Shown: positions 2,571-35,438, counted from the first letter of the stretch. The stretch: 64,000 bases of DNA from a virus (IMGVR_UViG_3300025727_000603:1-64000), one strand, 5' to 3'. Program-made: numbers and translations. Notes: generated by a model from the letters alone, not told the origin.

Positions 2571-2575
2571 ACGTT

Positions 2576-6080: not shown

Positions 6081-6094
6081 TAGAGGATATATAG

Positions 6095-7339: not shown

Positions 7340-7343
7340 TAAT

Positions 7344-7757
7344 ATGTCATATACAAACACAATAAATTCTAGAGAAGTTATATATTCGGACTTAAACTAT
7401 AAGTTTCGTATACTTCCTAATATAAAAGATTTAGCAATTAAAAAGGATGTGGACGCTGTAAAACAATCAGTTATGAACATTCTTTTGACTAATAGGGGTG
7501 AAAAACCATTTGAACCTTTGTATGGAGGATCTCTTAGAGATTATCTATTTGAGAATTTTGACATGATAACTGCAGCTGCTATAAGAGAAAGGATTCGCAC
7601 ATCAATAGTTAATTATGAACCTAGAGTAGAAATCCTATCAATTGAACTTAATGATTATATGGATAGAAATGCCCTAAGAATAAAACTAGAATTAAAAATT
7701 ATATCACCTGAGGATTTAATTACCTCATTAGACTTCATAGTAGAGAGACTCCGTTAA
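7344..7757 (+). CDS. gp25: baseplate wedge subunit
   Basis: YSDL, AVKQSVMNILLT.RGEKPF.P.YG..L...LFE, YEPRV and C-terminal ERLR. Confidence 0.92.
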   Translation: MSYTNTINSREVIYSDLNYKFRILPNIKDLAIKKDVDAVKQSVMNILLTNRGEKPFEPLYGGSLRDYLFENFDMITAAAIRERIRTSIVNYEPRVEILSIELNDYMDRNALRIKLELKIISPEDLITSLDFIVERLR

Positions 7758-15940: not shown

Positions 15941-18900
15941 ATGTCAATCAATTTTAATGTACCACCCTATTTCGATGATTTTGAATCAGTTTCTGAATTT
16001 GACGGATCCGACGGTTTATCCCCAAAAGATAAATATCATAAATTACTATTCAGACCATCATATGCAGTTCAGGCACGGGAATTAACACAGCTCCAATCTG
16101 TTCTTCAAAACCAAATCACTAATCTTGGACATCATTTATTTGTAGAAGGGTCCTTAGTAATACCCGGTGATGTATCATTCTCTAATGATATAGACTATAT
16201 TAAAGTTGAGATGGGGTCTATTCCGGACGTTAATGCAGATATAAATTATATAATGTCAAATCTGGATGACTCAGATTCTACTGGCCTTAAAGGAAAGTAC
16301 TTAGTCCGTGCTATCGACCTTGACTTGACCGGAAATATAACTCTCCCAGAACCTACATTATCAGCTAAAATTTTAAAAGTAGTACCTGCTATAGGTACTG
16401 CTCCGGCTGTACTATACATTCAATATTATGCAGCCTCTGCAGAGAAAACTGTAGATACTGGAGTTAATGTTAATGTTAATAAATTTAGGCCGTCTGATGA
16501 GCTTAAAGTTATTGATAAAATGCCTTCAGTTTATGGTAGTAATAGTAATAGTAACCCGTCTCCAACTAGTCTGACACTTCAATTTCATCAGGCTGTACTA
16601 AAGATTCCGTCTGAATTAAAACAATCTGCTATTGGTAAAGCGTCCCTAGCATTTGTTGAAAAAGGTGTTTATTTTATAAAAGGTAACTTTGTACAGGTTC
16701 AAAATTCAACACTTATAGTTGCTCCTTTCTCAACTTCGGCATCTGCAGATATTGGATTTAGAATTAAAGAATCTGTTATATCTTCTGCAGAAGATCCTAC
16801 ATTAAGTGATAATGCTACAGGATCACCTAACTTTGCGGCACCTGGGGCACACCGATATGAAATAAAAACAGAACTTATTGCTCTTGATATTAATACAGAT
16901 ATTGAAGGGACTGATGACGATTTCCTTTTGCTTTGTAGGGTAGATGAATCCGCTGTTAAATGGAAAGTTAAGAGAACTGATTATAATATTATAGAAGATG
17001 AATTTGCTCGAAGAACGTTTGACGAGTCGGGTAACTATACAGTAAGACCCTTTCATATTGATATAACAGAAGATAGAGACAATGTAGATTTATTTCAAGC
17101 CCAGCTAGAGCCATCAAAGGCATATGTACAGGGATACGAAATTGAAACATTATCCTCTATAAGTGTTCCTATTGAAAAGGCGAGAAGAGCTGAGGATACA
17201 GATGCAAAAGAGTCCGTTACAGTATCTATAGGTGTAGGTAATTATATACTTGTATCACCTAGAGATTTTTCTAGTCTTCTTTCTTCTGGTATAGTACCAC
17301 CTATAGATACTTTTGCTAGAGTCGACTTAAAGAACTTTGATAACTCAACTATAGGGTATACTAGAATTAGATCTGTAACTCGTGTTTCACCTGGATATAC
17401 TCATGACGACCAGGGTGTTATTATCCGTGATACATCTTTGGATATTTATAAAGTATATCTATTTGATGTATTTCTTAATGAATTTCAAAATTTTTCTTCT
17501 GTAGCTTCATTGTTATACTCATCGAATAATCACACATTTGATGTAAAATTGGTATCAACCCCTGCCGTTATAAAGGAAACTGATAAAAATTCACTTGTAT
17601 ATAAACTACCTTATGATCGTGTTAAAACATGCTCTATAGCTAAATTAAATACAACTGAAGAGGCAGATTATAATTACAGATTCAGAACTATTAAAATGTT
17701 TTCTCCTAAGCATGGAAATGGTAACTTTATTAATGCTACTGTTAATAATACGGAAACTGAATCTTTCGGTGCATTTAACCAATCTGATTGGATTCTTGAA
17801 AAGTTCATCCAGTCTGCAGGCACTACAATTATACCACTTACGTCAGCTATGGTAGGAGCAGCTGTTAGTGGGGATATGACATCAATTGCAATTGATTTAT
17901 CATCATGGTCTGGAGTTGTTGGAGGTGGAAAATATAGATTAACTGCACCTGTAGACTCCACAGCTATACATAGAACTAAGGAAGTACGTGATATTGAATC
18001 TGAAAGATGGGTTTATGACCAGTACGTTACTGCTGACAGTACTGCATATAATTCTGCACACCATTATGATGTTATTACACTAGCTAAAAACGACGTATTT
18101 AAAATTAATTTTGTTAAAGAATATATCGGTGACGGTGATTTAGGCGAAACCGGCACCGCAATTTATATACAAAACAATCCGGAACAATTTAAAGATATCA
18201 CAGAGCATTATATACTAGATACTGGGATGACTGATAATTATTATGACAATTCTAAACTTCGTTTAAGGTCTGATTCAGATTATATACCTTCAAATGATAT
18301 ATTCTGTTCTTATAAATATTTTCATCACTACCCTGGTGATTTCTTTTCTATAGATTCGTACCCTCCAGAAATGTATGATGATATTCCTGTATTTAATTCG
18401 GATAATCAGGGTAAATTAATAGAATTAAGATCCTCTATAGATTTTAGACAATCTAAAGATATTGAAAGTAACGTAGGTACATGTCCTCACCCTAATTCTA
18501 AATTCCAAACTGATCTTGAGTATTATCTCCCAAGAAAGGATATTATAGTAGTTGATGCTAAAGGTGATTTTAGATGTATTAAAGGTGTTTCTTCCCTAAC
18601 ACCTACATTACCTGAGACTCCATCTAATTCAATGGTTCTATATAATTTACATCTTCAGGCATATACTTTTACTCCGTCCGAAATTCAATATGAAATGATT
18701 GACAACAAACGCTATACAATGCGGGACATTGGTAAAATACAAAAAAGAGTAGATAATTTAGAATATTATACTTCCCTATCTCTCCTAGAATCGGAAGCTT
18801 CGAATAAAATAGTAGTAGATTCTGAGGGATTTTTAAGATCTAAAGCAGGATTTGTTGTTGATTCATTTAAAAACCATTCAATAGGTAATACACTATCACC

Positions 18901-21900
18901 TGAATATAGATGTGCGATTGACCGTAAAAGACGTACAATAAGACCTATCTTTCATGAGAATTCTATAGGGTTACAGTACGTCCCACCAACTTCTGAAATC
19001 AACCCTGCTGTATCAAGTCATGTTCAGAAAACAGGGGATCTTATTACACTTCCATGGTCTCCTGTAGAATTGTTCTCACAAGGGAAAGCCTCATCGACTA
19101 TTAACATAAACCCTTACGATGTATTTACATGGACAGGTTCTGTTAAACTTTCACCATCTCAAGATGACTGGAAAGATACAACTCATGTACCTGAATTAAT
19201 AGTTAATCAGACAGGTATATATGACGCCATGATGTCTATTATAGATGCGACAGATGCTCTTGGTACTGACTGGAATGAATGGGAGACAACTTTCTTTGGT
19301 TCCGAATCGACTTCATGGGTATCTGCATCAGGACGTAATTGGCAAACAACTACTACTGAAACAAACACTACTGAAGATCAAGCAAGAGATGGTATTTTAA
19401 CTGTTAATAACCCTTTTGTTAATTATACAGAGCTAGGTGAGCGAGTAATAGAAATAGGGTTTGCTCCGTTTATAAGGGGTAGAAGAGTATCATTCTCTGC
19501 AGAGAGGCTTAAACCCAATACTATAATATATCCTTTTATTGATAATGTTAACATATCGGAATATGCTATTCGAGATAATGTATTTGTGGATTATTCATCT
19601 TCAGATGATGAGATTTTTAATCAAATGGTTGAAAATTATGGCGCACATCCATTTGATACTGAGAGACTGTCGCCAATGTTTTATCCAGATAAGCAGGACT
19701 CAGTTACTGGAAAAGGTACACACCCATATAGATATGATGCGAACTCTTTAGAAACTATTGCATGGAAATTGTACGGATTAAATGACGCACCAACATATGA
19801 TAATATGTCAAATATGTATCCTAATACAGAATTAAAAACAGATGCTGCCGGTAGATTAACAGGGTCTTTTTGGTTTCCTAATGATGATGGTTTAAGGTTT
19901 AAAACCGGTACTCGTACTTTCAGATTATCGGATTCACCTATTTCTGTAAATAGAGATGAAGAAACTACTTTTGCACAAACACAATATCACGCAAAAGGAT
20001 TACTAGAAACAAAGGAAAATTTGACAATAGCTACTAAACTTCCTATGTTATCACAGACACAGGTATTTGATGAAAGAACAATATATAATACTTCTAGAAC
20101 AAACTCTACTAGATGGTGGGATCCTTTAGCTCAATCATTCCTAATAGATATTGATAAGCAACCACAAGGGGCTTTTATTACATCTATAGACTTATATTTT
20201 GCTAAAATATCAGAAACTATACCAGTAGTTCTTCAGATTAGAGAAGTTATAGTAGGTCTTCCATCTGCTATTATTGTCCCACACTCAACCGTAACATTAT
20301 ATCCGTCTGATATTAATGTAGATTCTAACCTAGGTCAGGCTGCTACTAAATTTGAATTTGAATCACCTGTCTATCTAGGGTCTGGTAAATCATACGCATT
20401 TGTTATTTTTGCTGATACTATCGATTATGAAGTCTGGATGGCGCGTACACAGGAAATAGATGTAGTTACTGATGCTGCTATTTCTAAAAATGTATTTGCG
20501 GGTGTATTATTTAAATCACAGAACGGTTCGACATGGTCTCCTGACCATAACGCAGATCTTAAATTCGCTATACATCGTGCAAAATATGATATTTCACGAC
20601 CAGGAAACCTAGTTTTAGTTAATAAAGAATTACCATTAAAAAGATTAAGAAATCATCCGTTCACAACTACTGAAACTAATGAGTTAAAAGTATATCATAA
20701 AAATCATGGTTTTGTTGAAAGTTCTTCTAGACAATCTTATGTTTCATTTTCTGGTATAGAGCGTAATCATCCTACTGAATCTCCGGAGACAGCTAATTTA
20801 TATGGTATTGATGCCAATAAAATTAATGCTATTTCTGAACACCCTTACTATGATGGATCAAACTTAGTCTCACCAACTGGTGCTGGAGTTTTCCCTGTAT
20901 TTGATGTAACACAAGACGCATATTCTGTTAGACTTGGAATTGATGAAAATAATAGTGATGGTCGAACTCAATTTGGGATTGGTGGAGGAAAAACAATTGA
21001 AGCTTCTGAAAATTATGCATTCTCCACGTGGTATCATCATGCGGCTATAGTAAACCTACCAACTACTAATATAACTTGGGGGGTTAAAACTACTAACCTC
21101 GGGACTATTGGAGCTAACAATACAACGGTATATAGAAAATCAACTAACTATAAGGCCTATGTTCCGAATACTAACATACATGAACCTTTTCCGCAAGTTA
21201 TAACCTCTAGAGAGAATCAATTACATAATGTTGATGTACACGATAACTTACCAAATAAATCGTTTGAGGTTATGGGACAACTAACATCTAATTCAGATTA
21301 TGTCTCACCTTCTGTTGATATAGAACGATGTTCTGTAGTATGTATCCAGAATAGAATAGGTAACTTCACCGGATATGGTGAATTAACCTCAGTTAATTTT
21401 AACCCTACTACACCAGAGTTAACAGGTCTAGGAAGGTTTAATGCAGGATTATATAAATTCGCTATTGACTCTAATAATGAAGCTAAAGGGGGTATACTTA
21501 ACCTATCTATTGAAGGAAAAGGCCCTATCTTATCTATAGACCATTTTATCTCAGCTTCTAATAAAACATTATTTGAGACAGATAAAGATTACTTAATGAT
21601 AATAGAAAACCCTTCTAGTTCTGATGCTACAAATGAAAATGTAGGAGTAATGAAGCTTAAGATTAACAAGTCAGATTCCGGAGCTGTAGTGTTTAATGAT
21701 ATTAAACTTAGCAGTGCTTCTACTCCTATTGCGGAATATGTTCCAGGTGTTTATGACTTTACAATTCTTGATAATAAGTCTAGATTTGGAGAGGCTACTC
21801 CTGATGCTAGTGGCCCAGGGCCTTACGGTTACGTTAATTTTAACTCTGGCTCTATGGATGTTGAATATGCAGCCAAAATAAGAGTAAGGGTAGATGCAGC

Positions 21901-24900
21901 CACATCAACAATTGCCTGGACTGATGAAGATAATAACACAGTTGCAGATAATATTAAAGTCTTAGATAATGGCTCGTCTGATAATAAATTTCCTATAGGT
22001 ACTGGTGTAGCACAGCCTGCAACCATTACACAAGATATTTCTTACTCACAGGCTCAAAAGTTAGGTATCCTATTTGATTCAGATAAAGCTTACGCACAGG
22101 ATGAAACTACTATAATATTTGCTAGTGGTAAATCGATAGCTTATAAGAGAAATGGCTCAAGTCTAAACACCAAGAATCTCCACCCAACCGAGCCACAGTA
22201 TTGGGATCAAGTCCCAGGACAGGGGGTGCTGATTAATGTTACGGCCTCAAACACATTGTTTAAAAATACACCAAGTTCAACAGGAGTAGGTGCTAAATTT
22301 AAAATTAAAGACTCGGGTTCGGGTATTGTTTCTGGTGAATATGTAGCGGATGTAGAACAAGTAAATGTATATAATATATTACCCATACCTCATGGGTCCA
22401 CTACGGTACTTCTAAGGGAGTATACTCCTTATAATGAGAATTTGATGGGGACTAATGAAAAAGTGTCTTTACTGGTTAATCCAAATGCAACAGCAGATGA
22501 AGAGGGTAATTTCGACTGGACTTTCAATTTAAAGGTAATAGTGAACTACCTGTATTCAGGAGCTTCAGGAGCGTCTAAAAGTGTCGGATTTAATATTAAT
22601 GGTATTTCCATGTCAGCTTTTAAGGATATACTTAAAGATGATCTGGGTCTGGACAGCATTCCGGCATTATCCGGTACTTATCCTAATGCTAGTTATAATA
22701 CTTATGCTTTTAAAGAAGTCGCAAATAATCAATCAGATACTTTAACTACCTGGCTTAATGATCTTGTAGTAGATAGATGGCGATCTATACAAGCTTGGGC
22801 AATTTTATTAACGGGCTCAGTAGACCTTTCTGACTCCTCTAATTTAACTGGTGACGGTGGATATATTGACCCTACTCTTTCAAACGGAGTGGCTGGAGAT
22901 ATTCTTAACATACACATAGCTAACGTTAATGATCCATCAACTCTACAGCTTTCAAGTACAGGTACCTCGATATCTATGTCCACGGACAGTAACAGTAGTA
23001 AGATAGGCATTTTTCTAGAAGATACTTGGAGCACAGCTGCGCACGGTACAACTGATCTTATATACTGGAATCTATCACCAGATGGACCTTACGAGTCTAT
23101 ACTGACTGATTATTCTGGAACTCCCGATATAATGACACTATGGGCCGGCGGTACCGATGTTCGTATTGTTCTTAATGTATGTCAGGGTACACCATCAGCT
23201 GATAATGGATGGGACAATGCAGATGCTGAGCATGAAGCAGGTAAAGTTAAAATTACCGTTAAATCAGACGCTTCACTAGAAGGAGCTGCACTTCTTAATG
23301 AAATCCAAACGAATGCGTGGTCTAATGTTATGGGGTATAATGTGGTACCATTAGATAGTGACACTAACAAATGGTCATTTGACATTAATCAGTGGAAACA
23401 TGTAAACGGTGGGGATACACATACTGTTACACTAAAACCACCCGAAGCAGTGACCGTTGACTTAGCTGAAGTGGGTATATGGGTTGATCCATATCTTGAA
23501 CTCGGAAAGATGGAACAAGATCTTGGTAATGAATCGAATCCTTCTGATAATAACATGCTCCAACCAGTAAAATGGAGATGGGGTTATGACAAATCCTACA
23601 ATCCTACAATTAATTATACTCAGATTGATGGAGATTTTGATGATAGCTTTACTAGTTTGATTCCTAACGGTTATTATTATAATTGTATGATACCAGCTTA
23701 TAATGTAGTTCCTTTATATCAGGCGTCTGACATTACACCATTTTTTAATACTCATGCTCAACATTCCAATAGTGTCTATACCGGTCCTACTGGTATACCA
23801 ATTAATGTACCTATTACAAAGTCTACCTTAGGTTTAGGAAAAAAAGTTAATAATATCGATACAGAAGCTAATTGGTTAAAAGGACTGCTTAAATATAGTT
23901 TTAATCAGCAGCTGCAGCACTACACATTTACAAAATACGTCCCTTCTTCAACTAGGGTAGTTACTCAAGAAGATTTTACAAATGGAGCTGAATATATTGA
24001 AAAGACCTATTCTGCAACAAATGCAACAACTGAAACAACGACTACAATTCCAATTACTGATTGGCAGAATGGAGTAACACGAACTGTACAGTCATATGAG
24101 TACGACTATAGTCCAGCATCAATTTCAGAAGGAGACATTGTATATTACCAAGATACTGATGAGAAAACGTTTTCGTTTTATGAATGTATAACTTCTCATG
24201 GTGATACCTCAATAGACAATAATTTAATTGACGGTCTCTTGAATGAGAATACGCACTGGCAAACAGTTTATGACTATAATATAGTACTTAATTTCCTAAA
24301 TTATAATTTAATTACATATACAGTAGTACCAGTAGAAGGTAAATTTCTAGCCTATGATAAGCTTAAAGTAAGAAAAGCACCTACTTCCTCTAACCTTTCA
24401 TATGAATCTAAGGAAGTGAATGTACAAAGATTGAATTACAGTTTCTCTTCCGAAGGTTCGTTGGCAACTCCAACCTTTAGTGGATTATCACCAACATCAG
24501 AGAAACTATTACAGCTCGAATATAATGGACAATTGGATACGGGTGGAAGTAACTGGAATACTGAACGATTTAGTAACGATGCAATTGCAGCCAATGATAT
24601 CTTTGCTAATCCTTCTATAATTAAAATACAATTAAAAAATTCACATCTTCCAAGTCATCATAGATTAAGAAAGATAGTTGCATCTCCGGGTGTACCTGAT
24701 TACAATATTATAATTAATGATAAAGTAACAGTATACGCAGATGCAGTTGAAGATACAGAAATGCCTACTCTCTATTATCAGGAAGGTATGTTTTTCTTAG
24801 AATCACCTGATAACTCTAATAAGTTAACTTCGGAGAATAGAATAGACTTTTTACCTCCACAGTCACCATACACGGCCAAAACTACCGGACTCCCTGCTGA

Positions 24901-27900
24901 TTATAACTCTTGCTTTTCGCTTCATACAAATGGGGAATCAGCATCGTCGGCTTTTAACACGCAAACAAATAGAGCTGCATTTACAGGAGATGCATATGGT
25001 ATAGCTAAAAATTTAAAAAATAACAACAGTTCAGACTTTCTTATCAATGAAGGAGATAATCGTATTCCGGATCTTCATGAATCAGGAACTATAAAACTAA
25101 GCCCATTAGAAGGAATAGAGGGTAATATAACACGTGATGGCTCTATTGTTCACTCAATAAATAGACCAAATGATGTAATGATAAATGCTGTAAATTATAC
25201 TAAAGAAGACTGTAGACTATATGATAACGGTCTTAGAGTAAATCTTCATCCTTATATAACTAACTTTGCGTTAAGGTCGTTTTTTCTTGAACTAAAGACT
25301 TCTAGTTTGATTAATCACGTTGAAGATTGGCGAGCAAATCACGCCGACATTGCCGGATGGGAGGGCCTAGTAGATAATGAATATTATAGATATAATATAG
25401 ACTCTGAATACTATAACAATAAGATTACCGGTATACTTGGTAGTCTGGCAGCAAAAATTATTTTCCCTAAACTAGATGATAATGTAGACTCAGGTACAAT
25501 AAACCACTATCGTTCTGATGAGGGTAGTATTATTGGTGATGTAGCTATTGAAGAAAATTCTGAACAGACTAATATTGAATGGATGGCAGTAAGTTCAAAT
25601 TTTGTTATTCCTGATGCTATATTAAGTTGTACAGGGACAATGCAATTTTGGGATAAAGCGGATTCTACGGCACCGGATACAATAACAACTGTTGACGGTT
25701 ATTGGCCTCGTAAAGGGGACAATTATTCGAATATACATTCCGGTCGGCAAATTGAGTCATCTAAATACTTGTTTGATTGGAATAAACTAAAAGACGATGC
25801 GGCAAACATTAATATTAAATGGAATACTCATCAATACATAGAAGGGTTATACAATCAACCGGGTTTGTTACCTAATGATAGAAAATTATTAAGACGTGAA
25901 TTCCCTTATAATTATAACATATTACAGAATATTAACTCGACAACTAATCCGGTTGATTATAGTCAAACTAGATATTCTGAAGTTGATAATTTGGATAAGC
26001 TTATGTTATCTGCTTACTCAACTTTAGGATCTGGTGTATACGGACCACCGACGACCGGCAGCGGCAGAGCATGGACATTCGGAGATCAAGCATCAACGAC
26101 ATCAGTTGTGTTTAATGATATAGTAAAAATTGACCCATTAACATCTTGTACAAGCATATCTTATGTTAATGGGCCCCTCTCGATGGTTACTAGCTCTGAT
26201 GGATCGGAAACTAGCATTAGAATAAAGATACCCCATAATAAGATTCATAAATGGGTACACATGGCGTTGGCAAATCAATCAATAGCCAACAATACAGTAA
26301 CAACTGCCTTTGATGCTAATAATAGTTCAATTCTACATAGACAATTACATAATCCTGAAATGTTTAATTTTAATTCATTCTTTACATTTGAAAGTTCAAC
26401 GGAGTCATCAACAATAACCTCAAAACTTATATATCTTAATGATGGTATGCGCGCGAGTGATGGTCTCAGTTCAGAATTTAATGTAATCTCTGGAACTGCC
26501 ACTATTGGGGTTGAATATCGAATTTGGTATCCTAATGACTCTACAGGAGTCAGTGGTTTCAAAACATATGATTACCCAGACTGGTATGAGAATTCAGGTT
26601 GGGGAGTGGATGATAACATTATTGTAGAGTTCTTAATACCATCAACACCAGGTGCTGATTTTATAAATTCATTAGTATCAGTTTCATTTACCCATTATCA
26701 GAATCTTCATGTAGTTGCCCCCACTAGCACCGGTGCTAGTATTGCGGATTCCAGTAGCCAAGCTTGTGGATTTGGAGCACGGAGTATTATTTCATCTTCA
26801 ACTGCGAGTACTAACACCACCCTCACCGATCAATCAGATTACCATGGTAAATTCAAAGATGGTAACGGACTCTCATGGACAGATGAAAAATATAAACTAG
26901 AAGAGTATAGACTATCCGATAATGCAACTGACTCTGATATTAAGGATAATACTACCACTTTATTATACTTACCAGTAGACAGTGGTGCAATCCTTAAAAC
27001 AATTAATCAATTTTCTGGAGTATCAACCTTAAAATTTACTGAGATTGGTAGTAACCCATATGAGTACTTTACAGGTATTATTACTAATATACAACTATCT
27101 CCCGCTAAAACAGGGTTTGGGTATACAACTGCTACGGCTGTAGATTCTGGTGGTGCACAAATTCAAATAAAACCAAATTGGGGTAACATGATAAGTAGTG
27201 GTACCGCAGCTCCTAAAATATCATTTACTGCGTCCAACACGGGTGCTGTATCTATATTTGAAGTATATAAACCTGATAACGCTTCATCCGGCAATATTGT
27301 TTCAGGTCAGGATTCTATGGGTTATTGGGTAGGACAAAATTACAATATAGGGGAATTTGATGATCGACATTTAAGCGTTAATTGGCATTCAATTTATGAT
27401 GTTAAGAATGCTGCCAACACAGGACTAAAATTTACTACTGATTCTGCAACTGAAAAGTCTTTACCATCTTTACAGTTTAGCGCAGACGGGACTAATGGTA
27501 AAATATCTAAAATTACAAGGAACACTCCGGCGAATGGAGTGGATAGTAGCTTCTATGTATGGAATCAGTCAGCTAGTAATAGTTCAGGGACATTTGGTCT
27601 TGGTATATGGGGTCTAACACTCAGTCTGGATGATAATACAAGTAAAACAATCAGGAATTCCGGTGTAACTAATCCCGATTTTGAAGTTGGAGAAAGCTCA
27701 ATTGGAGCATCTATAAGTGCTGTGCATATTTTAAAAACAGGATACGGATATGCTGGTAATATTAGTACCAGCTCAGCACTCACTCTGAACTCGTACATGG
27801 ATTCTATAGCACTACAAAAGATACTTAGTTTCGAAGATGCAGTTGCACAGGGAATGATATTGAATAGTAGTACTATTACTAATGTGACCTGGGATGCTGG

Positions 27901-28948
27901 AACGTGGTTAAATACCATTGGTTCGTATGATTTAGTAGATATTCAGTTTATATCAGATGTTGCACCAATAGTTAAATCTAATGTGGCAGCTCTGAATAAT
28001 GTAGAATTAGAACTCTTATATGATGGAGGGCAGGACGCCGTTTTTACAAATAATGGTTCTTCGTTCTTTGAAGCTATAGATGGTAATAGACATATTACAT
28101 TTGTTAGCTATAGCGATAGTGGGTACAGTGATGATCGAATTAGGAATATTCGAGACAATATTAGTAATATAGCTCAGGACTCACGAACAACTATGGAGAC
28201 AAACTATCTCGGATGGTACAGTGACCCAGAGAAAGCTGGTCTGCAAGACACAGCTAGATTGTTTAGTTGGGGTTCCGAAAATTCCGTTTACAATAATGTA
28301 ACAATTAAGTCTATTTTTCAGAACGATTTATCCTTTCTTCAGTTAGTTGATAATGTAAGTGGTGTATTAGATTCAAACTCTGATGTATGGTTAGAAGCTT
28401 CAGGAAATGCTTACTCTTCAAATAATATTACTCTTACTCCAATTGGAGGTAATAGTACGTCGGATCATACTGCGTTAGCAGAGCACCTAAAAGATTTTAT
28501 AACACTTGATTTTAATTATATTGATAACACAGACGATGTGAATAATTTATCTACTCGGTTTATAGCTGAACTTCATCCTTCTAAAGGTACAGCATTAAAC
28601 AAATATGTTACAAGGAATATTAAGTTAAAGAACTCTTCTAATTTATTAAATATATTTTTAGATGTTAACAGACCTTTTGGGACAGATATTGAGGTATATT
28701 ACAGAACACATACAGAAGATGATATGATTGATGAGTCAAATTGGATTCTTGGAGAACCTGTAGGTGGTACAGACATACCATTTAATGATAATCCTAATGT
28801 TTTTACAGAGACTGAGTATTATATAGATAATGTTATTTCCGCTAATAATATGTTCACAACATTTGCTATAAAAATAGTATTTAAATCCGCTAATAGTTCT
28901 GTTATACCTCAAGTTAGAGACTTAAGAGCAATTGCACTAAATGTATAG
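15941..28948 (+). CDS. giant virion structural protein, DUF4815/VrlC-like, with ~2400-aa internal insertion
   Basis: N-terminus NFNVPPYFDDF...LFRP..AVQARELTQLQS.LQNQ, APGAHR, ARRTFDESGNY.V.PF, RYTMRDIG, GF.VDSF and DPLAQSF; C-terminus KYVT...V.DLRAIAL. Confidence 0.85.
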   Translation: MSINFNVPPYFDDFESVSEFDGSDGLSPKDKYHKLLFRPSYAVQARELTQLQSVLQNQITNLGHHLFVEGSLVIPGDVSFSNDIDYIKVEMGSIPDVNADINYIMSNLDDSDSTGLKGKYLVRAIDLDLTGNITLPEPTLSAKILKVVPAIGTAPAVLYIQYYAASAEKTVDTGVNVNVNKFRPSDELKVIDKMPSVYGSNSNSNPSPTSLTLQFHQAVLKIPSELKQSAIGKASLAFVEKGVYFIKGNFVQVQNSTLIVAPFSTSASADIGFRIKESVISSAEDPTLSDNATGSPNFAAPGAHRYEIKTELIALDINTDIEGTDDDFLLLCRVDESAVKWKVKRTDYNIIEDEFARRTFDESGNYTVRPFHIDITEDRDNVDLFQAQLEPSKAYVQGYEIETLSSISVPIEKARRAEDTDAKESVTVSIGVGNYILVSPRDFSSLLSSGIVPPIDTFARVDLKNFDNSTIGYTRIRSVTRVSPGYTHDDQGVIIRDTSLDIYKVYLFDVFLNEFQNFSSVASLLYSSNNHTFDVKLVSTPAVIKETDKNSLVYKLPYDRVKTCSIAKLNTTEEADYNYRFRTIKMFSPKHGNGNFINATVNNTETESFGAFNQSDWILEKFIQSAGTTIIPLTSAMVGAAVSGDMTSIAIDLSSWSGVVGGGKYRLTAPVDSTAIHRTKEVRDIESERWVYDQYVTADSTAYNSAHHYDVITLAKNDVFKINFVKEYIGDGDLGETGTAIYIQNNPEQFKDITEHYILDTGMTDNYYDNSKLRLRSDSDYIPSNDIFCSYKYFHHYPGDFFSIDSYPPEMYDDIPVFNSDNQGKLIELRSSIDFRQSKDIESNVGTCPHPNSKFQTDLEYYLPRKDIIVVDAKGDFRCIKGVSSLTPTLPETPSNSMVLYNLHLQAYTFTPSEIQYEMIDNKRYTMRDIGKIQKRVDNLEYYTSLSLLESEASNKIVVDSEGFLRSKAGFVVDSFKNHSIGNTLSPEYRCAIDRKRRTIRPIFHENSIGLQYVPPTSEINPAVSSHVQKTGDLITLPWSPVELFSQGKASSTININPYDVFTWTGSVKLSPSQDDWKDTTHVPELIVNQTGIYDAMMSIIDATDALGTDWNEWETTFFGSESTSWVSASGRNWQTTTTETNTTEDQARDGILTVNNPFVNYTELGERVIEIGFAPFIRGRRVSFSAERLKPNTIIYPFIDNVNISEYAIRDNVFVDYSSSDDEIFNQMVENYGAHPFDTERLSPMFYPDKQDSVTGKGTHPYRYDANSLETIAWKLYGLNDAPTYDNMSNMYPNTELKTDAAGRLTGSFWFPNDDGLRFKTGTRTFRLSDSPISVNRDEETTFAQTQYHAKGLLETKENLTIATKLPMLSQTQVFDERTIYNTSRTNSTRWWDPLAQSFLIDIDKQPQGAFITSIDLYFAKISETIPVVLQIREVIVGLPSAIIVPHSTVTLYPSDINVDSNLGQAATKFEFESPVYLGSGKSYAFVIFADTIDYEVWMARTQEIDVVTDAAISKNVFAGVLFKSQNGSTWSPDHNADLKFAIHRAKYDISRPGNLVLVNKELPLKRLRNHPFTTTETNELKVYHKNHGFVESSSRQSYVSFSGIERNHPTESPETANLYGIDANKINAISEHPYYDGSNLVSPTGAGVFPVFDVTQDAYSVRLGIDENNSDGRTQFGIGGGKTIEASENYAFSTWYHHAAIVNLPTTNITWGVKTTNLGTIGANNTTVYRKSTNYKAYVPNTNIHEPFPQVITSRENQLHNVDVHDNLPNKSFEVMGQLTSNSDYVSPSVDIERCSVVCIQNRIGNFTGYGELTSVNFNPTTPELTGLGRFNAGLYKFAIDSNNEAKGGILNLSIEGKGPILSIDHFISASNKTLFETDKDYLMIIENPSSSDATNENVGVMKLKINKSDSGAVVFNDIKLSSASTPIAEYVPGVYDFTILDNKSRFGEATPDASGPGPYGYVNFNSGSMDVEYAAKIRVRVDAATSTIAWTDEDNNTVADNIKVLDNGSSDNKFPIGTGVAQPATITQDISYSQAQKLGILFDSDKAYAQDETTIIFASGKSIAYKRNGSSLNTKNLHPTEPQYWDQVPGQGVLINVTASNTLFKNTPSSTGVGAKFKIKDSGSGIVSGEYVADVEQVNVYNILPIPHGSTTVLLREYTPYNENLMGTNEKVSLLVNPNATADEEGNFDWTFNLKVIVNYLYSGASGASKSVGFNINGISMSAFKDILKDDLGLDSIPALSGTYPNASYNTYAFKEVANNQSDTLTTWLNDLVVDRWRSIQAWAILLTGSVDLSDSSNLTGDGGYIDPTLSNGVAGDILNIHIANVNDPSTLQLSSTGTSISMSTDSNSSKIGIFLEDTWSTAAHGTTDLIYWNLSPDGPYESILTDYSGTPDIMTLWAGGTDVRIVLNVCQGTPSADNGWDNADAEHEAGKVKITVKSDASLEGAALLNEIQTNAWSNVMGYNVVPLDSDTNKWSFDINQWKHVNGGDTHTVTLKPPEAVTVDLAEVGIWVDPYLELGKMEQDLGNESNPSDNNMLQPVKWRWGYDKSYNPTINYTQIDGDFDDSFTSLIPNGYYYNCMIPAYNVVPLYQASDITPFFNTHAQHSNSVYTGPTGIPINVPITKSTLGLGKKVNNIDTEANWLKGLLKYSFNQQLQHYTFTKYVPSSTRVVTQEDFTNGAEYIEKTYSATNATTETTTTIPITDWQNGVTRTVQSYEYDYSPASISEGDIVYYQDTDEKTFSFYECITSHGDTSIDNNLIDGLLNENTHWQTVYDYNIVLNFLNYNLITYTVVPVEGKFLAYDKLKVRKAPTSSNLSYESKEVNVQRLNYSFSSEGSLATPTFSGLSPTSEKLLQLEYNGQLDTGGSNWNTERFSNDAIAANDIFANPSIIKIQLKNSHLPSHHRLRKIVASPGVPDYNIIINDKVTVYADAVEDTEMPTLYYQEGMFFLESPDNSNKLTSENRIDFLPPQSPYTAKTTGLPADYNSCFSLHTNGESASSAFNTQTNRAAFTGDAYGIAKNLKNNNSSDFLINEGDNRIPDLHESGTIKLSPLEGIEGNITRDGSIVHSINRPNDVMINAVNYTKEDCRLYDNGLRVNLHPYITNFALRSFFLELKTSSLINHVEDWRANHADIAGWEGLVDNEYYRYNIDSEYYNNKITGILGSLAAKIIFPKLDDNVDSGTINHYRSDEGSIIGDVAIEENSEQTNIEWMAVSSNFVIPDAILSCTGTMQFWDKADSTAPDTITTVDGYWPRKGDNYSNIHSGRQIESSKYLFDWNKLKDDAANINIKWNTHQYIEGLYNQPGLLPNDRKLLRREFPYNYNILQNINSTTNPVDYSQTRYSEVDNLDKLMLSAYSTLGSGVYGPPTTGSGRAWTFGDQASTTSVVFNDIVKIDPLTSCTSISYVNGPLSMVTSSDGSETSIRIKIPHNKIHKWVHMALANQSIANNTVTTAFDANNSSILHRQLHNPEMFNFNSFFTFESSTESSTITSKLIYLNDGMRASDGLSSEFNVISGTATIGVEYRIWYPNDSTGVSGFKTYDYPDWYENSGWGVDDNIIVEFLIPSTPGADFINSLVSVSFTHYQNLHVVAPTSTGASIADSSSQACGFGARSIISSSTASTNTTLTDQSDYHGKFKDGNGLSWTDEKYKLEEYRLSDNATDSDIKDNTTTLLYLPVDSGAILKTINQFSGVSTLKFTEIGSNPYEYFTGIITNIQLSPAKTGFGYTTATAVDSGGAQIQIKPNWGNMISSGTAAPKISFTASNTGAVSIFEVYKPDNASSGNIVSGQDSMGYWVGQNYNIGEFDDRHLSVNWHSIYDVKNAANTGLKFTTDSATEKSLPSLQFSADGTNGKISKITRNTPANGVDSSFYVWNQSASNSSGTFGLGIWGLTLSLDDNTSKTIRNSGVTNPDFEVGESSIGASISAVHILKTGYGYAGNISTSSALTLNSYMDSIALQKILSFEDAVAQGMILNSSTITNVTWDAGTWLNTIGSYDLVDIQFISDVAPIVKSNVAALNNVELELLYDGGQDAVFTNNGSSFFEAIDGNRHITFVSYSDSGYSDDRIRNIRDNISNIAQDSRTTMETNYLGWYSDPEKAGLQDTARLFSWGSENSVYNNVTIKSIFQNDLSFLQLVDNVSGVLDSNSDVWLEASGNAYSSNNITLTPIGGNSTSDHTALAEHLKDFITLDFNYIDNTDDVNNLSTRFIAELHPSKGTALNKYVTRNIKLKNSSNLLNIFLDVNRPFGTDIEVYYRTHTEDDMIDESNWILGEPVGGTDIPFNDNPNVFTETEYYIDNVISANNMFTTFAIKIVFKSANSSVIPQVRDLRAIALNV

Positions 28949-29176: not shown

Positions 29177-32100
29177 ATGGTACATATCCTAGATAAATCG
29201 ACAAGAATTAATGTCACAGAATCAGACACATTTAATGAATGGCGTTTAAAAACAAATGAAATAGGCTCCTTTATTGGTGATAAGCACCATATTGCTAGAT
29301 ATTCTACTATAAATTATGATTGGATTCCTTTATGGACTGATACAGAACTCTTAAACGGGAATGACGAGAATAGAAAACATCCCGATACTAAAGTCCCTTA
29401 CAGGAAAGCTTTGGTTAATATAAAAATACAGGGTATGCATGCTCTAGAGTCAACCTCTACCGAAGATTGGGTCGCTATGCAGACAGAAACTACCCAATCG
29501 ATTATCAAACAAGAAATTGACTTTGGAGGTATGCTCACAGAAGAAAATATTAGAGTTACTATTAAAACACATCAGCCAGGTGCTGTTAATGATGATGATA
29601 GGTATTACTATGGTGATGTTGGTACTGATTACCCTTATGGCTACGCTGATAATGACATTTTAACTATTCGTGGATCGTCTATAGGTGGTGTAGATGGGAT
29701 AAATGATCTTAAGGTTAAGGTGGCAGTGACAGCGAGTCATGTTAATGAGGGTGTTACCTTTAAATATATTAGTAATGTAAAAATTTCAGGTCAGCCTATT
29801 AACGAATCAGAATATGGATCAGACTACATAACTCTGGCATTAACTAAATTACCTCCGGCCTCCATATATAACGAACTTCATCAGATTAGGTCCGATTTAG
29901 CCGGCGAACAGGAAAATCCAAACTTTATTCCTTTTACAAAATTAACAACTAATGCACAAACTATAGCATTAGCTATTAATGAAGTTAATGCAAAAATTCA
30001 AGGTACACAAGGTAATTTAACATTACTTAAAACTATTGATGACGAATTACAATCAATACCTTGGTCTAAATATTATAAACAATATACGATTGATGGTAAT
30101 GGCAATACCACAATCACTGATGGTTATAAAATAGATGATATTGTCTATGTAGACCCAACGATTATAAATGACATCGGGGATACCCTATATTTTAAATCTA
30201 TTACTGAATATAATGTAGACAATCCTGTATCCCGGGATAATGACGGAAACTTTGATCGTAGTTATAATCTAACACAACAAGGTCAGGGTAACCTCGTTGA
30301 AAATGGGGTTCCTGTCGATTCATCAATAACATGGTTTCAAGTTGACAGTACTGTATATTCCTCCATGTCATTGAATAAATCCTTAAATATAGTTAATACT
30401 AGTCTCGGTATTACTAGTAATAACACACTAGCTTCATTAAAAAATAACCATCCTGACTATACCGGCCCACAAGATACTATATATCATTCCCTAAGAAATA
30501 TTGATTCTTATATAGGTAATTACTTAGGACTTAAATCTCAAGTATATAATAGATATGTTAACCCATACCGTACAGTAACATTAGATGGAGTTGCTACTAA
30601 TAATATAGACTATTCTAGTATAGGAACCGGAGATCCTGGTACTATAAAATTACCTACAGGTATGTTGCTTAGTCAGGCCTTTACGGATCCTAACGACTTG
30701 GAATATAATTTCTTACCTGTTGATGCTGACAAAAATGGCCTATATGCGCAATGGACTACACAAGTAACCGAACCCTATCAGTTATACACTAAATCTTATC
30801 ATCCTGATACCAACGTCTTCAACGGTTTTGTTGCAGCAGCTGATGACGACATTGTAGTAGCTCTAACTAAGCTTAGGTTAAGAGTAGATATGCTCACAGA
30901 AGAGATATATCTAACTAAGCGTGACGCAGGAGATAGTTCGGCGGCATGGCAATGGGCTCAGAGAATTACTAAGAGTGATCAATTTGAGAATAACTTTTCC
31001 GGAATGCACGGTATTATTAATATTCTTAAGGGACTAGAAGATCTTGTATCTCCGATTACAGGAGATTCTTTGGATAGAGGGAAACTATCACGTTCTGGGT
31101 TTAAAACAGACTACGCTGATACAGCTGGTTGGGATCAGTCTATACCAACTGGTTCTAAACAAGAGCAGTCACTGACTAATAATATTTATGAAGATTATGA
31201 CTCTTCTCATGTAGAAGGTCCTTTATGGGCTGGCTCCACTGATTCTGATGATAAGCCATTAGGTATTATTGCAGGTAGTATTACACGAATATCGGCGGAT
31301 GGTGGTTATAAACCTCAATACTCATCTGATCTTCTAATACTAAGAACTGCAGGGGTAACTCCTGTTGATGGGACTAGCCACAATAATATTGATTTTCCAA
31401 GCACGGTAACTGGAACCTCTAAATCGGCCGATATTAGGACATTATATCCAGAACGAATAGTTATTAATAACGGTAGTGAAACACAGGTAGCTATAGGTTA
31501 TACTGAAACTGATCGTACAGATACTAATTTCTGGACTAATAACGACAACACATTTATTGACCACTCCAGTAACCCGAGTTGGGTCTGGGAAACCTCCTCT
31601 GGACTAAACTTACTTCAGCAGACAGCTACAGACCAACCAATGAACCTGGATGTTAAGGGGGATATAAGAGCAACTAATAAGATATATATTGGACCTTCTG
31701 ATAACATAAGGTCAATTGACGATTTATACTTATCATCAGGTATTAGAGAAAAGGAAGCGAGTGAAAATGCACCTGTCCAAAATATATTTACTAAACCTAT
31801 TTTCCGTGAAGGTTTAGTAGTCCACTCTGAAAAACCAATGAATGATTGGTATACCTTTACGGAGGATGGAAGAATACAGCCTGATGCTCAACTTCTGCAG
31901 AGAGAAATAGAGGATGTTGTAGGGGCTATGGTTACTGATAAAATCTCTGCAACCGGTACCCCAAGCACTCTTAATATGGAATCTGGTTTAAACGTTCGGT
32001 ATGACAGTCTTAAAGCAGATACTAATAGTGGTCTAAGGTCTCCACATCAAGCAACTTTAAACTTTGAGGTTCATTCACCTGATATTTTAATTACAGGAGA

Positions 32101-33715
32101 TATGTTAGGAAACACCAAGATGATGAGTTTATCCGATGTAGTAATTGATACTCATATCAATAAAGACTCAACGTATATCAAAAAAGTAGTTAAAGAACTT
32201 GTATATGACTCTTTAAATCCAGCTCATTGGGATTCAAGCGTTACAAACAAATATCATGACGGAATATCGGTCACTGATGCTCATAGTGGGATGGCTTCAA
32301 ATAAATACTATCGTGCTATGAAAATGGAACTTTTAGATGGGTTTGTATCTGGTGATACTCTGACATTTCATTACCATGACGGAGAGAATTTAAAAACTAT
32401 TTCCATTTCGGTTCCGGATAACGTATCAACTGGTTTAAATACAAAGGGTATATATCCGGCCGGAGTAATATCACAGGATCAATACAACGATAATCCTGAA
32501 TGGAAAAAAACAGCACGGTTTGGTGCTTCTAAATGGTTATCTCAATATCTTAAAGCAGAGTCTACCCCTGAACTCGCTACCTTTAACAGCTATTGGGATG
32601 TAACCTTCGCAACATACTATGACGGTAATGCTGATGTTGTTCCTGTTATAGTATTTACAGAGAAAAACCCTCTTTCTGTCAGTAATGAAACAAATTCACC
32701 TAACAATCAGTCACAATTGTGGAAACTTGGTCTGGAGTCTACTAACGCTGGTACTATTGCCTCTGGAAATTTTGACAATAGCAATACTGACAAAGTAGCA
32801 TATAATGAGAAATGGCACAGAGATGGCAACTACAATGACGAATTTAATCAATTTGATATATCTAAGGCAAACGATAGCAGTGGAATCTATACCAAAAATA
32901 AAACACCTCAGTATGCAGACAATTATATAACATCAATAGTAAATGTGCAAATTTCTGAACCTGAAATTATTAAAGATGATTTATCAGATACTCCTAAATT
33001 ATCTTTAAATATAGCAGGACAGACATCTACTAACCACATAGGGTCTTTCACACCATCAATAAGTGTTAATTCAAACGGCGTGGCAGAATTAACAATTACA
33101 ACTAGTGAGGATTTGACACCTTGGAAGGACGAGGGATACCTTAAATCGGCACCTAATAATACATACTCGGCAAGCGCTACCGGTCATATGACTAAAAGTA
33201 CAACCCAATGGGCCAGTGGAATTTTTAGCACAGATGCCGAACCTGGTACATCAACTGACTTCAAAGCAGGTAAAATTGTTTCTCGTAATGATTCGGGTGA
33301 CTTCTATGCTAATATTATGAATGGTACAGCAACTAAAGCCCGATATGCAGATTTAGCGGAAAACTATGTTGCTGATAAACAATATGAAGTTGGTACAGTA
33401 TTATCCTTAGGTGGTGAATTTGAGGTTACAGAATCAGATAGGATAATGGATTCTAGAATCGTAGGAGTCGTTTCTGAAAATCCTGCATACTTAATGAATT
33501 CATATTGTACAGGTGAATTTATAGCTACTGTAGCACTAAGAGGAAGAGTACCTGTTAAAGTAGAAGGACCAGTTGATAAAGGTGACATTATTATATCATC
33601 TGGAAGAGGTACAGGAGTTTCTAATAATAACCCTTCATTTGGTTCTATTATAGGAAAGGCTGTAGTATCTAAAACTTCTGAAGGTACCGAGTTAATAGAG
33701 GTAGTTATCACCTAA
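29177..33715 (+). CDS. tail fibre-like structural protein with C-terminal intramolecular-chaperone-like domain
   Basis: N-terminal SDTFNEWRLKTNEI and LTT.A.T...AINE motifs; C-terminal A.YADLAENY.AD..YEVGTV...GG..EVT...GVVSENPAYLMN...VAL.GRVPVKV.G...KGD...IIGKA. Confidence 0.7.
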   Translation: MVHILDKSTRINVTESDTFNEWRLKTNEIGSFIGDKHHIARYSTINYDWIPLWTDTELLNGNDENRKHPDTKVPYRKALVNIKIQGMHALESTSTEDWVAMQTETTQSIIKQEIDFGGMLTEENIRVTIKTHQPGAVNDDDRYYYGDVGTDYPYGYADNDILTIRGSSIGGVDGINDLKVKVAVTASHVNEGVTFKYISNVKISGQPINESEYGSDYITLALTKLPPASIYNELHQIRSDLAGEQENPNFIPFTKLTTNAQTIALAINEVNAKIQGTQGNLTLLKTIDDELQSIPWSKYYKQYTIDGNGNTTITDGYKIDDIVYVDPTIINDIGDTLYFKSITEYNVDNPVSRDNDGNFDRSYNLTQQGQGNLVENGVPVDSSITWFQVDSTVYSSMSLNKSLNIVNTSLGITSNNTLASLKNNHPDYTGPQDTIYHSLRNIDSYIGNYLGLKSQVYNRYVNPYRTVTLDGVATNNIDYSSIGTGDPGTIKLPTGMLLSQAFTDPNDLEYNFLPVDADKNGLYAQWTTQVTEPYQLYTKSYHPDTNVFNGFVAAADDDIVVALTKLRLRVDMLTEEIYLTKRDAGDSSAAWQWAQRITKSDQFENNFSGMHGIINILKGLEDLVSPITGDSLDRGKLSRSGFKTDYADTAGWDQSIPTGSKQEQSLTNNIYEDYDSSHVEGPLWAGSTDSDDKPLGIIAGSITRISADGGYKPQYSSDLLILRTAGVTPVDGTSHNNIDFPSTVTGTSKSADIRTLYPERIVINNGSETQVAIGYTETDRTDTNFWTNNDNTFIDHSSNPSWVWETSSGLNLLQQTATDQPMNLDVKGDIRATNKIYIGPSDNIRSIDDLYLSSGIREKEASENAPVQNIFTKPIFREGLVVHSEKPMNDWYTFTEDGRIQPDAQLLQREIEDVVGAMVTDKISATGTPSTLNMESGLNVRYDSLKADTNSGLRSPHQATLNFEVHSPDILITGDMLGNTKMMSLSDVVIDTHINKDSTYIKKVVKELVYDSLNPAHWDSSVTNKYHDGISVTDAHSGMASNKYYRAMKMELLDGFVSGDTLTFHYHDGENLKTISISVPDNVSTGLNTKGIYPAGVISQDQYNDNPEWKKTARFGASKWLSQYLKAESTPELATFNSYWDVTFATYYDGNADVVPVIVFTEKNPLSVSNETNSPNNQSQLWKLGLESTNAGTIASGNFDNSNTDKVAYNEKWHRDGNYNDEFNQFDISKANDSSGIYTKNKTPQYADNYITSIVNVQISEPEIIKDDLSDTPKLSLNIAGQTSTNHIGSFTPSISVNSNGVAELTITTSEDLTPWKDEGYLKSAPNNTYSASATGHMTKSTTQWASGIFSTDAEPGTSTDFKAGKIVSRNDSGDFYANIMNGTATKARYADLAENYVADKQYEVGTVLSLGGEFEVTESDRIMDSRIVGVVSENPAYLMNSYCTGEFIATVALRGRVPVKVEGPVDKGDIIISSGRGTGVSNNNPSFGSIIGKAVVSKTSEGTELIEVVIT

Positions 33716-34461
33716 TGATCGGTATTCTTGGTTATGGTTTTGTTGGGAAAGCAGTTGATAAAGGGTTCACAAAAACAGATAAAATAATATCGGACCCTTT
33801 ATATAATGACGTATCTATTGAAGATATGATGGATACAGAATGTATATTTGTATGCCTTCCAACACCTACAGTAAACGGTAAAATAGAAGCAACAATACTA
33901 TTAAATGCACTCAAGCATCTAGAAGAACTCGAGTACTCTGGTCTTATAATAATAAAATCTACTGTTCTTCCAGACCTAATTAAAGGGTACTCTAATAATG
34001 TAGTATGTGTACCGGAATTCTTATCTAGAGCAACAGCTCACCATGATTTCATTAACCCTCATGTATTAATAATAGGATCAAATTCTATTGTTACATCACA
34101 CCATACTTTAGCTATATTTAAGAAATATTCTGAGGTTTCCACAAAGAATGTACATCTAACAGATATAAAAACAGCTTGTATATTAAAGTATACTATGAAT
34201 ACCTTTAATGCCCTAAAAATAACATATTTAAACGAGATATATAAAGTATGTGGGATAGAGGGTATAGATTACAAAGAAATAGTATCTGTATTAGAGCGAG
34301 TACCGAGAATGGGTACAGGTCTTTTTGATGTTCCTGGTCCAGATGGTAAGTATGGATTTGGTGGTCCGTGTCTTCCTAAAGATGCTGAGTCTTTTGCCTC
34401 TGCATACTCTATGGATTTAGTAAAAGGTATATTAGAGGTTAATTCGTTATTAAGACATTAA
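33715..34461 (+). CDS. ugd: UDP-glucose/GDP-mannose dehydrogenase family protein (lacks C-terminal UDP-binding domain)
   Basis: GILGYGFVG Rossmann motif, FVCLPTP, IKSTV.P, PEFL, KY..N.F.ALKI...NE and catalytic GFGGPCLPKD. Confidence 0.85.
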   Translation: MIGILGYGFVGKAVDKGFTKTDKIISDPLYNDVSIEDMMDTECIFVCLPTPTVNGKIEATILLNALKHLEELEYSGLIIIKSTVLPDLIKGYSNNVVCVPEFLSRATAHHDFINPHVLIIGSNSIVTSHHTLAIFKKYSEVSTKNVHLTDIKTACILKYTMNTFNALKITYLNEIYKVCGIEGIDYKEIVSVLERVPRMGTGLFDVPGPDGKYGFGGPCLPKDAESFASAYSMDLVKGILEVNSLLRH

Positions 34462-35438
34462 ATGTTCTATTATCAGAAGGGTGTAATCTAAACTGCTCAT
34501 ATTGTGGAATGGATAAATGGTCTAAAACCACTATATCTCAAGATTCTGTAATAAATAGATTTAAAGAACTTAGACTTGAGTACCCTAATGATCGTATACG
34601 AATAGACTTTTTTGGAGGTGAACCTCTTCTCCAAATGAAGATGGTTAAGTCAATTATATCAAAGATGAAGAAAGTTGATGATAATTATACCTTAGCTATG
34701 CCTACTAATGGGATATCTCTAACACCTGGAATACTAGATTACCTAAAAAAAGAAAAAGTCTCTGTATCTCTCTCATTCGATGGCTTATGGCAAAACGATA
34801 GGAGACCTATTAGAGATTCCAATCTATCTTCTTTAAATGTACTGTACGCTAAACGAAAATTGTTTTCTGGATTAAAATGTCATTCTATGATATCCGGATC
34901 TGACTATAATTTACTAGAAAATCATTTATATATAACTCAAAATTTTGGGATGAATCCTGAACTAACATTAGTTAGGGATAGAGGGACATGGACACCAGAA
35001 TCAGTTAAACTTCTTCAGATCGGTATTAACGAAATTTATGAGTGGTACAAAAATAATCTCTCTGAAGATATGCCTAATTTTATATTATTCTGGCTTCGCG
35101 ATATATTAAGATATCATTATAAAGGATTTACAGTTGAAGGATGTGGTGTAGGAAGAGATCTTCATGCATTAACAGAGACTGGAGAGTCCGTTACATGTGA
35201 CAGATTTGCTGGGGATAAAGAAGCAGTTGAGAAGATAAATGAGTTTTACTCTATGCCTGAATGCTCAACTTGTCGTGTAAAGAATTATTGTCATAAAGGT
35301 TGTATGTATGAACAAATTAAGTCAAATGGGCCAATCCCTGAACTTTGTGATATATATAAGTATTGTTATGATAAAACAAAAGAAATACTACCCCTGATAC
35401 CTAAAGATATAATAAGGAGAGAATTGAATGATTCATGA
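34449..35438 (+). CDS. radical SAM/SPASM protein 1 (peptide-maturase type); probable ATT start
   Basis: The CNLNCSYC motif is at 34482-34505, in frame but upstream of ATG 34509. Also FFGGEPLL, TNG, SFDG, CGVG...C and C..C.....C.KGC...C (SPASM). Confidence 0.85.
   Translation: MKTLNVLLSEGCNLNCSYCGMDKWSKTTISQDSVINRFKELRLEYPNDRIRIDFFGGEPLLQMKMVKSIISKMKKVDDNYTLAMPTNGISLTPGILDYLKKEKVSVSLSFDGLWQNDRRPIRDSNLSSLNVLYAKRKLFSGLKCHSMISGSDYNLLENHLYITQNFGMNPELTLVRDRGTWTPESVKLLQIGINEIYEWYKNNLSEDMPNFILFWLRDILRYHYKGFTVEGCGVGRDLHALTETGESVTCDRFAGDKEAVEKINEFYSMPECSTCRVKNYCHKGCMYEQIKSNGPIPELCDIYKYCYDKTKEILPLIPKDIIRRELNDS

Follow-up and report, generated by a model that had tools for sequence, protein, structure and literature searches.

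The question raised by this locus is where a phage gene begins when no canonical start codon precedes the cysteine motif that defines its enzyme class. The locus lies in IMGVR_UViG_3300025727_000603:1-64000, a stretch of 64,000 nucleotides referred to here as the window, which covers the first 64 kb of an IMG/VR virus contig of 79,310 bases with a CheckV completeness estimate of 35%. At ATT 34449, a gene related to nucleotide-sugar dehydrogenases (the ugd-like gene) meets the first of several radical S-adenosylmethionine (SAM) genes. Comparison with homologous proteins and genes makes it highly probable that this radical-SAM/SPASM gene initiates at ATT 34449, inside the end of the ugd-like gene.

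Start position of the radical-SAM/SPASM gene

The open reading frame (ORF) called from ATG 34509 encodes 309 aa and lacks all three cluster cysteines, whose motif lies in frame upstream, as the first-pass annotation of this DNA had pointed out. After TAA 34440-42 the enzyme frame reads TTC GTT ATT(34449) AAG ACA TTA AAT GTT CTA TTA TCA GAA GGG, followed by the motif codons TGT AAT CTA AAC TGC TCA TAT TGT at 34482-34505 and then by GGA ATG(34509). Listing the 13 codons before Cys 34482 bears out the same annotation's statement that no in-frame ATG, GTG or TTG stands between the TAA and the cysteine motif. Its reading of AGAGGT at 34434-39, with a 9-nt spacer before ATT 34449, and of a 9-codon mini-ORF from ATG 34462 directly after the ugd-like stop TAA 34459-61, also agrees with the sequence. 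Matches to the Pfam models Radical_SAM and Fer4_12 both begin upstream of ATG 34509, that to Radical_SAM at residue 10 of the stop-to-stop translation.

The homologs place the start at ATT. MKTLLVVLSEKCNLNCSYC is the N-terminus of ∼110 of 120 database homologs: among the best 120, ∼110 open with MKTLLVVLSEKCNLNCSYCG(V/M)DKWSK, and a start of the form MK(T/L)L is found in ∼110 of these 120 proteins. Read from ATT, the N-terminus encoded in the window, (ATT)KTLNVLLSEGCNLNCSYCGMDKWSK, matches the homolog N-termini in both length and residues. The first-pass annotation had proposed aligning homolog N-termini, and in that alignment the residues equivalent to KTLNV are present and the initiator Met falls at the ATT position. 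Metagenomic homologs number in the hundreds and are ∼334 aa long. The closest relative with an ATG-type start, protein P0005, shares 58% identity. At the DNA level, IMG/VR relatives have their start codon (ATG in 12, GTG in 1) exactly 11 codons upstream of the first Cys, and ATT 34449 is that same codon. All 13 of these relatives have an in-frame stop 1-5 codons upstream of the ATG or GTG, as is the case with ATT here, so that their starts are unambiguous. A pattern scan of IMG/VR found ATT at the start position to be unique to this lineage.

Profile alignments point to the same residue. Position 2 of the PapB-family NCBIfam profile aligns with the ATT residue, and the family profile aligns with CteB (PDB 5wgg) from its residue 97, just past the N-terminal peptide-recognition domain of that enzyme. 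These alignments indicate that the N-terminus read from ATT is complete, with nothing missing upstream.

Eight further database proteins (P0078, P0087, P0104, P0114, P0037, P0115, P0050 and P0006) were also called from internal Met or Val codons, and in them the N-terminal strand or the Cys motif is partly or wholly missing. Further non-canonical or overlapping starts may be hidden among them; scans of viral contigs with P0087 and P0114 as queries returned no additional loci.

Coding status of the codons upstream of ATG 34509

A gene that had been crippled would make only the 309-aa product from ATG 34509, or nothing, and the codons upstream would be a decaying remnant. Gene callers did choose ATG 34509 in three database entries, cutting both of the closest database proteins (P0003 and P0004) at this same internal Met, and dN/dS (the ratio of non-synonymous to synonymous change) in the enzyme gene is about five times that of the relatives with ATG or GTG starts. 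Against this, no part of the gene is better conserved than the 20 codons that precede ATG 34509. Between the window and the most divergent ATT-bearing locus, L085, codons 34449-34508 differ at ∼8.3 synonymous and ∼3.7 non-synonymous sites (pS 0.66, pN 0.077), giving a dN/dS of ∼0.05 with synonymous sites near saturation; the remainder of the enzyme gene gives ∼0.2. Low dN/dS together with near-saturated synonymous sites argues that these codons are translated in the enzyme frame, and the other two frames of 34449-34508 are broken by stops. On the pattern of substitutions, the 20 codons between ATT and ATG 34509 are coding. In the enzyme frame, the two codons that separate the TAA from ATT evolve like non-coding sequence: the change of GTT to ACT in L085 replaces Val by Thr there but is silent in the ugd frame.

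Other parts of the gene also tell against its having been crippled, with neither stop nor frameshift in 329 codons across three lineages at near-saturated synonymous divergence, and with all catalytic motifs intact. ATG 34509 itself lacks a Shine-Dalgarno (SD) site, and its Met21 is replaced by Val in most homologs. We therefore regard a crippled gene as very unlikely.

Conservation of ATT across assemblies and strains

ATT 34449 is identical in four independently assembled contigs from different samples, at protein identities of 99% (L004), 89% (L005/L084) and 70% (L085, LWDU01000688.1). L085 reads TAA TTC ACT ATT AAG AAA CTA AAT GTA, and codons on both sides of ATT have changed there (GTT to ACT, ACA to AAA, TTA to CTA). 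Public sequencing runs were covered through Logan, as assembled contigs and not raw reads. Among contigs from other studies' runs, variants occur at 34440 (T>C), 34448 (T>C) and 34456 (C>T), and none at 34449-51.

These data bear on the chance that an ATG was turned into ATT by faulty sequencing or assembly, an explanation favoured by nothing but the rarity of ATT starts. The ATG that the first-pass annotation had suggested looking for at 34449 was sought, and all contigs have ATT, those of four other public runs (from at least three studies) as well as the four independent assemblies; nor is there a homopolymer at the site. An error for ATG at 34449 is thus ruled out by the independent assemblies, and we assign it a negligible probability. 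The indel near 34462 that the same annotation had considered was also sought, and none occurs between 34335 and 34700 in any contig.

A strain variant in runs X3 and X4 has CAA for the TAA at 34440, which opens the enzyme frame back to TGA 34386-88, and no canonical start is gained upstream. Runs X3, X4 and X7 also show paired one-base deletions and insertions, at 34760/34764 and at 35006-35021, after which the frame is restored; these may be short, locally recoded peptide stretches or alignment artefacts of diverged strains.

Possible recoding at the ugd-like stop

Recoding could in principle bring ribosomes into the enzyme frame, either by a -1 frameshift late in the ugd-like gene, giving a ugd-rSAM fusion, or by a shift from the mini-ORF at ATG 34462. 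The two frames do overlap, and ATG 34462, which L085 retains, stands directly after the ugd-like stop (a UAAAUG junction). Nevertheless, 34443-34481 contains no slippery heptamer of the form X XXY YYZ, the candidate stretch varies by lineage (AATTCGTTATT, AATTCACTATT, AATTCGTCATT), and in every relative the enzyme is separate, with its own Met at this position. The shift from ATG 34462, which the first-pass annotation had put forward as an alternative, can be rejected in particular: it would skip the family-matching Lys-Thr-Leu encoded upstream, and the mini-ORF peptide is not conserved. In L085 the peptide is MYYYLKVVT, with 4 of its 8 non-Met residues changed while the overlapping enzyme residues are unchanged. 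The ATG and TAA of the mini-ORF are automatic by-products of the enzyme frame, in which the codons for Leu-Asn-Val and Leu-Asn generate them. Recoding of either kind is accordingly highly unlikely.

Ribosome-binding site

Anti-SD energies are those of duplexes that the 16S rRNA 3′ end forms with positions -20 to -4. The duplex at ATT 34449 (-6.5 kcal/mol) ranks 9th among 41 gene starts and is reached at 4% of random window positions, so that a chance match is unlikely. The corresponding values are -1.4 kcal/mol at ATG 34462 and +1.6 kcal/mol, i.e., no SD, at ATG 34509. Local mRNA folding at ATT is unremarkable (-5.2 kcal/mol against a median of -4.0 at other starts).

The same AGAGGT precedes the ATG starts at 28961, 33715 and 58925, and GAGGT is retained in L005 and L085. 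Across the family, the three ATT-lineage loci have duplexes of -6.3 to -6.5 kcal/mol, whereas the eleven relatives with ATG or GTG have weak or no sites (-3.9 to +1.6 kcal/mol). The weak start codon thus carries the strongest SD of the family, which looks compensatory, with the caveat that GAGGT doubles as a Glu-Val codon pair in the ugd frame.

The SD spacing also bears on whether some other non-canonical codon in the interval from the TAA to the Cys motif, e.g., AAG 34452, might be the start. AAG is one base from AUG, and low-level initiation has been measured from many codons in E. coli (bioRxiv 10.1101/063800). In the same work, however, AUN codons initiated about ten times better than codons with a mismatched second base, and it is ATT, not AAG, that has the family Met position and the better, 9-nt SD spacing. 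We consider initiation at such a codon extremely unlikely.

Origin and persistence of ATT within the overlap

In 8 of the 11 relatives' loci the stop of the ugd-like ORF is the TGA within an ATGA overlap. The C-terminal tails of the ugd-like proteins align without gaps, ILEVNSLLRH in the window against VLELNEQYRQ in the relatives, with both protein lengths kept, and in the window 9 nt fewer separate the LE(L/V)N codons from the Cys codon. The overlap is 4 nt at the ATGA junctions of the relatives and 13 nt in the window, where the radical-SAM gene shares the final 13 nt of the ugd-like gene, its start lies 10 nt inside that gene and the junction reads ATTA. An origin of ATT from ATGA by a single G-to-T change is incomplete as an account, since the ungapped tails require a net loss of 9 nt as well.

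The third base of the start codon at 34449 is the middle base of a ugd codon. Before the AAG that follows, ATG, GTG or TTG would give TGA in the ugd frame and ATA would give TAA, both stops, whereas ATT gives TTA (Leu) and ATC would give TCA (Ser). Any NTG start would therefore delete the last three residues of the ugd tail, the hydrophobic-Arg pattern of which is common to the family. For a dual-coding conflict with the ugd frame as the cause of the origin or persistence of ATT, we judge the case to be evenly balanced. The arrangement suggests that ATT is more a by-product of the ugd overlap than a purpose-built regulator. The fuller proposal, that an ATT locked in place by dual coding has long been kept, with the SD strengthened to compensate and a ∼five-fold relaxed selection on the enzyme tolerated, falls somewhat short of an even chance.

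Several points weigh against initiation at ATT and the history proposed for it. T 34451 is also the middle base of a ugd Leu codon, and given this double role a start function cannot be told apart from ugd coding by conservation alone. Which of the 9-nt and G-to-T changes came first, and whether the ugd tail is needed, are matters that we infer. The enzyme gene has a dN/dS of 0.20-0.21 in the ATT lineage (window against L005 and L085) versus 0.03-0.04 in the ATG/GTG controls (L007/L008 and L010/L011), which, with two control pairs only, is an observation and not a test. Lastly, the sole RNA evidence is a 223-nt contig inside the gene (34987-35209), from an RNA library in which DNA carry-over is possible.

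The ugd-like gene evolves alike in both groups (dN/dS 0.10-0.21 in the ATT lineage and 0.13-0.16 in the ATG/GTG pairs). On these substitution ratios, constraint on the enzyme is relaxed ∼five-fold in the ATT lineage, perhaps in a gene-specific manner linked to the weak start. Such relaxation is consistent with reduced output. The enzyme gene is clearly still under purifying selection, with all motifs intact.

Proposed initiation mechanism and expected output

If translation begins as proposed, ATT would be read as the initiator (formyl-)methionine of a 329-codon enzyme, and ribosomes could reach it by two routes. In the first, they would bind directly to the GAGGT SD site 9 nt upstream of ATT. 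In the second, they would re-initiate after terminating on the ugd-like gene at TAA 34459-61, 10 nt away, which would couple the two genes. ATGA gene pairs are translated via termination-reinitiation (Huber et al. 2019, PMC6728339), and an ATGA stop/start overlap of the ugd-like and enzyme genes, retained in most relatives, would be the ancestral state here. Once the overlap had grown to 13 nt, an NTG codon before the conserved Lys AAG would have stopped the ugd-like gene, and ATT would have been retained.

Reduced enzyme output, the down-tuning put forward in the first-pass annotation, is reasonably to be expected from an ATT start in view of published AUU efficiencies. AUU initiation reached 1-2% of that from AUG in one reporter set (bioRxiv 10.1101/063800) and was 6-8 times below AUG in another, yet only 4 times below AUG at an infC-like junction with coupling, the contributions of re-initiation and de novo initiation being additive (PMC3592434). 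Re-initiation is lowered by overexpression of initiation factor 3 (IF3) (PMC2268962). At the present junction the stronger SD would partly offset the weak ATT, leaving enzyme output lower but non-zero.

Known parallels for a start of this kind are the AUU codons of E. coli infC (which encodes IF3) and pcnB, where, as here, a conserved AUU behind an SD occupies the position of the relatives' AUG or GUG. In infC (UAA GGU AUU, PMC3592434) the AUU also lies near the stop of the upstream cistron, and, as for infC, lower output than from AUG is expected. The infC AUU comes 3 nt after that stop, however, whereas the ATT described here lies inside the upstream gene, in a 13-nt overlap. It further differs from infC and pcnB in having no known link to IF3 autoregulation, in apparently being held by dual coding, and in that its start is proposed from sequence comparison. 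The likeness to ATGA pairs (PMC6728339) lies in the ATGA junction of the relatives, in an operon of short overlaps and in a stop 10 nt from the start. Unlike those pairs, the window has T in place of G, so that the junction holds neither ATG nor TGA, and it has a 13-nt overlap and a non-canonical start; it also has a strong SD, which the ATGA relatives mostly lack. Both AUU initiation and translational coupling are already established, and the case is a new example that changes no principle.

Identity of the enzyme and its upstream partner

The enzyme scores 50 bits against PF04055 (cut-off 29.5) and finds CteB (5wgg) as its PDB profile match. It matches the NCBIfam PapB-family equivalog NF047865 over its full length at 98.7 bits, against a cut-off of 340. 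The Pfam SPASM model gave no match at E ≤ 0.01 for the enzyme; its Cx2Cx5Cx3C region aligns with the SPASM region of CteB. In common with PapB-family ranthipeptide maturases, CteB and the anaerobic sulfatase maturase (PDB 4k36), it has the CxxxCxxC, GGE and C-terminal Cx2Cx5Cx3C motifs. The first of these motifs is close to the N-terminus, and the profile matches extend over the full length. It differs from these enzymes in being phage-encoded beside a short ugd-like gene and in having no N-terminal RRE, as follows from the family profile beginning at CteB residue 97. By these matches, the enzyme is a radical-SAM/SPASM protein that lacks an RRE; it is related to the PapB, CteB and anSME families without being a member of the PapB equivalog.

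The ugd-like protein has the N-terminal and central domains only, Pfam detecting no C-terminal domain, and covers profile positions 70-294 of the 413 in NCBIfam TIGR03026. This short form (243-248 aa), without the C-terminal UDP-sugar-binding domain, is conserved in the window, in L007-L017 and in L085, and the short gene directly precedes the radical-SAM/SPASM gene in most of the relatives examined. This suggests that the two form a fixed two-gene unit. Coordinates of the features at the junction and in the enzyme gene are collected in Table 1.

Table 1. Features of the ugd-like and radical-SAM/SPASM genes, in window coordinates.
Feature	Position	Strand	Basis or remark
ugd-like gene, 248-aa nucleotide-sugar dehydrogenase	33715..34461	+	Pfam PF03721 and PF00984
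Shine-Dalgarno-like AGAGGT, core GAGGT 34435-39	34434..34439	+	9-nt spacer to ATT
In-frame TAA closing the enzyme frame, three codons before ATT	34440..34442	+	sequence reading
ATT, proposed initiation codon of the radical-SAM/SPASM gene	34449..34451	+	aligned with relatives' ATG/GTG
Corrected radical-SAM/SPASM coding sequence (proposed), 329 codons and stop	34449..35438	+	PF04055, PapB-family and CteB 5wgg matches
TAA stop of the ugd-like gene	34459..34461	+	10 nt downstream of first ATT base
Out-of-frame mini-ORF, 9 codons, MFYYQKGVI then TAA 34489-91	34462..34491	+	sequence reading
CxxxCxxC (CNLNCSYC), radical-SAM 4Fe-4S cluster ligands	34482..34505	+	nearly invariant in family alignment
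Internal ATG (Met21), miscalled start	34509..34511	+	no SD; Val in most homologs
FFGGEPL, GGE-type SAM-binding motif	34608..34628	+	F56, G58, G59, E60 and P61 invariant in alignment A1
Cx2Cx5Cx3C motif (CSTCRVKNYCHKGC), SPASM-type auxiliary-cluster ligands	35262..35303	+	C274, C277, C283 and C287 invariant

Genomic context

The window comes from a marine T4-like phage that, like its host, is uncultured. T4-type baseplate proteins are matched by genes at 1704-9700, and the public runs containing the stretch are marine metagenomes. Searches against cultured phages gave no match with blastn and, with tblastn, only enzymes of Campylobacter phages, which at ∼25% identity are too distant to inform the start. 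The GC content is 30-42% over the window and ∼34% near ATT 34449. A tRNA scan of the window found zero tRNA genes, and there is thus no phage initiator-like tRNA in it to invoke for ATT. The operon around ATT 34449 consists of tightly packed and mostly overlapping genes, with overlaps of 4-20 nt as the norm.

Three very large ORFs (9704-14095, 15941-28948 and 29177-33715, of 1463, 4335 and 1512 aa, respectively) separate the T4-like baseplate genes from the radical-SAM island. They presumably encode fibre or structural proteins, and no Pfam model matches the 1512-aa ORF. Further down the island, one gene has a 36-codon start-less leader before ATG 41997, and those at 42803, 43377 and 45172 have TTG or GTG as their first starts, with overlaps of 26-46 nt. 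The true starts of these four genes may have been mis-set by naive calling.

Implications

The main uses of the finding are as an annotation correction and as an evolutionary example. Standard gene callers, which do not consider ATT as a start, cut 20 residues from the enzyme and from at least two relatives in public collections, and with them the class-defining iron-sulfur motif. Consequently, the first enzyme in a large phage radical-SAM island is described incompletely by automatic annotation.

As a comparative case, the locus offers what is very probably a natural phage AUU start kept over deep divergence. It brings together an evolutionary route in the decay of an ATGA overlap, a plausible reason for persistence in the overlapping frame, an apparently compensating SD and relaxed selection. 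If this holds generally, the decay of ATGA overlaps in the tightly packed operons of phages would repeatedly and predictably give rise to non-canonical starts and to truncated gene calls.

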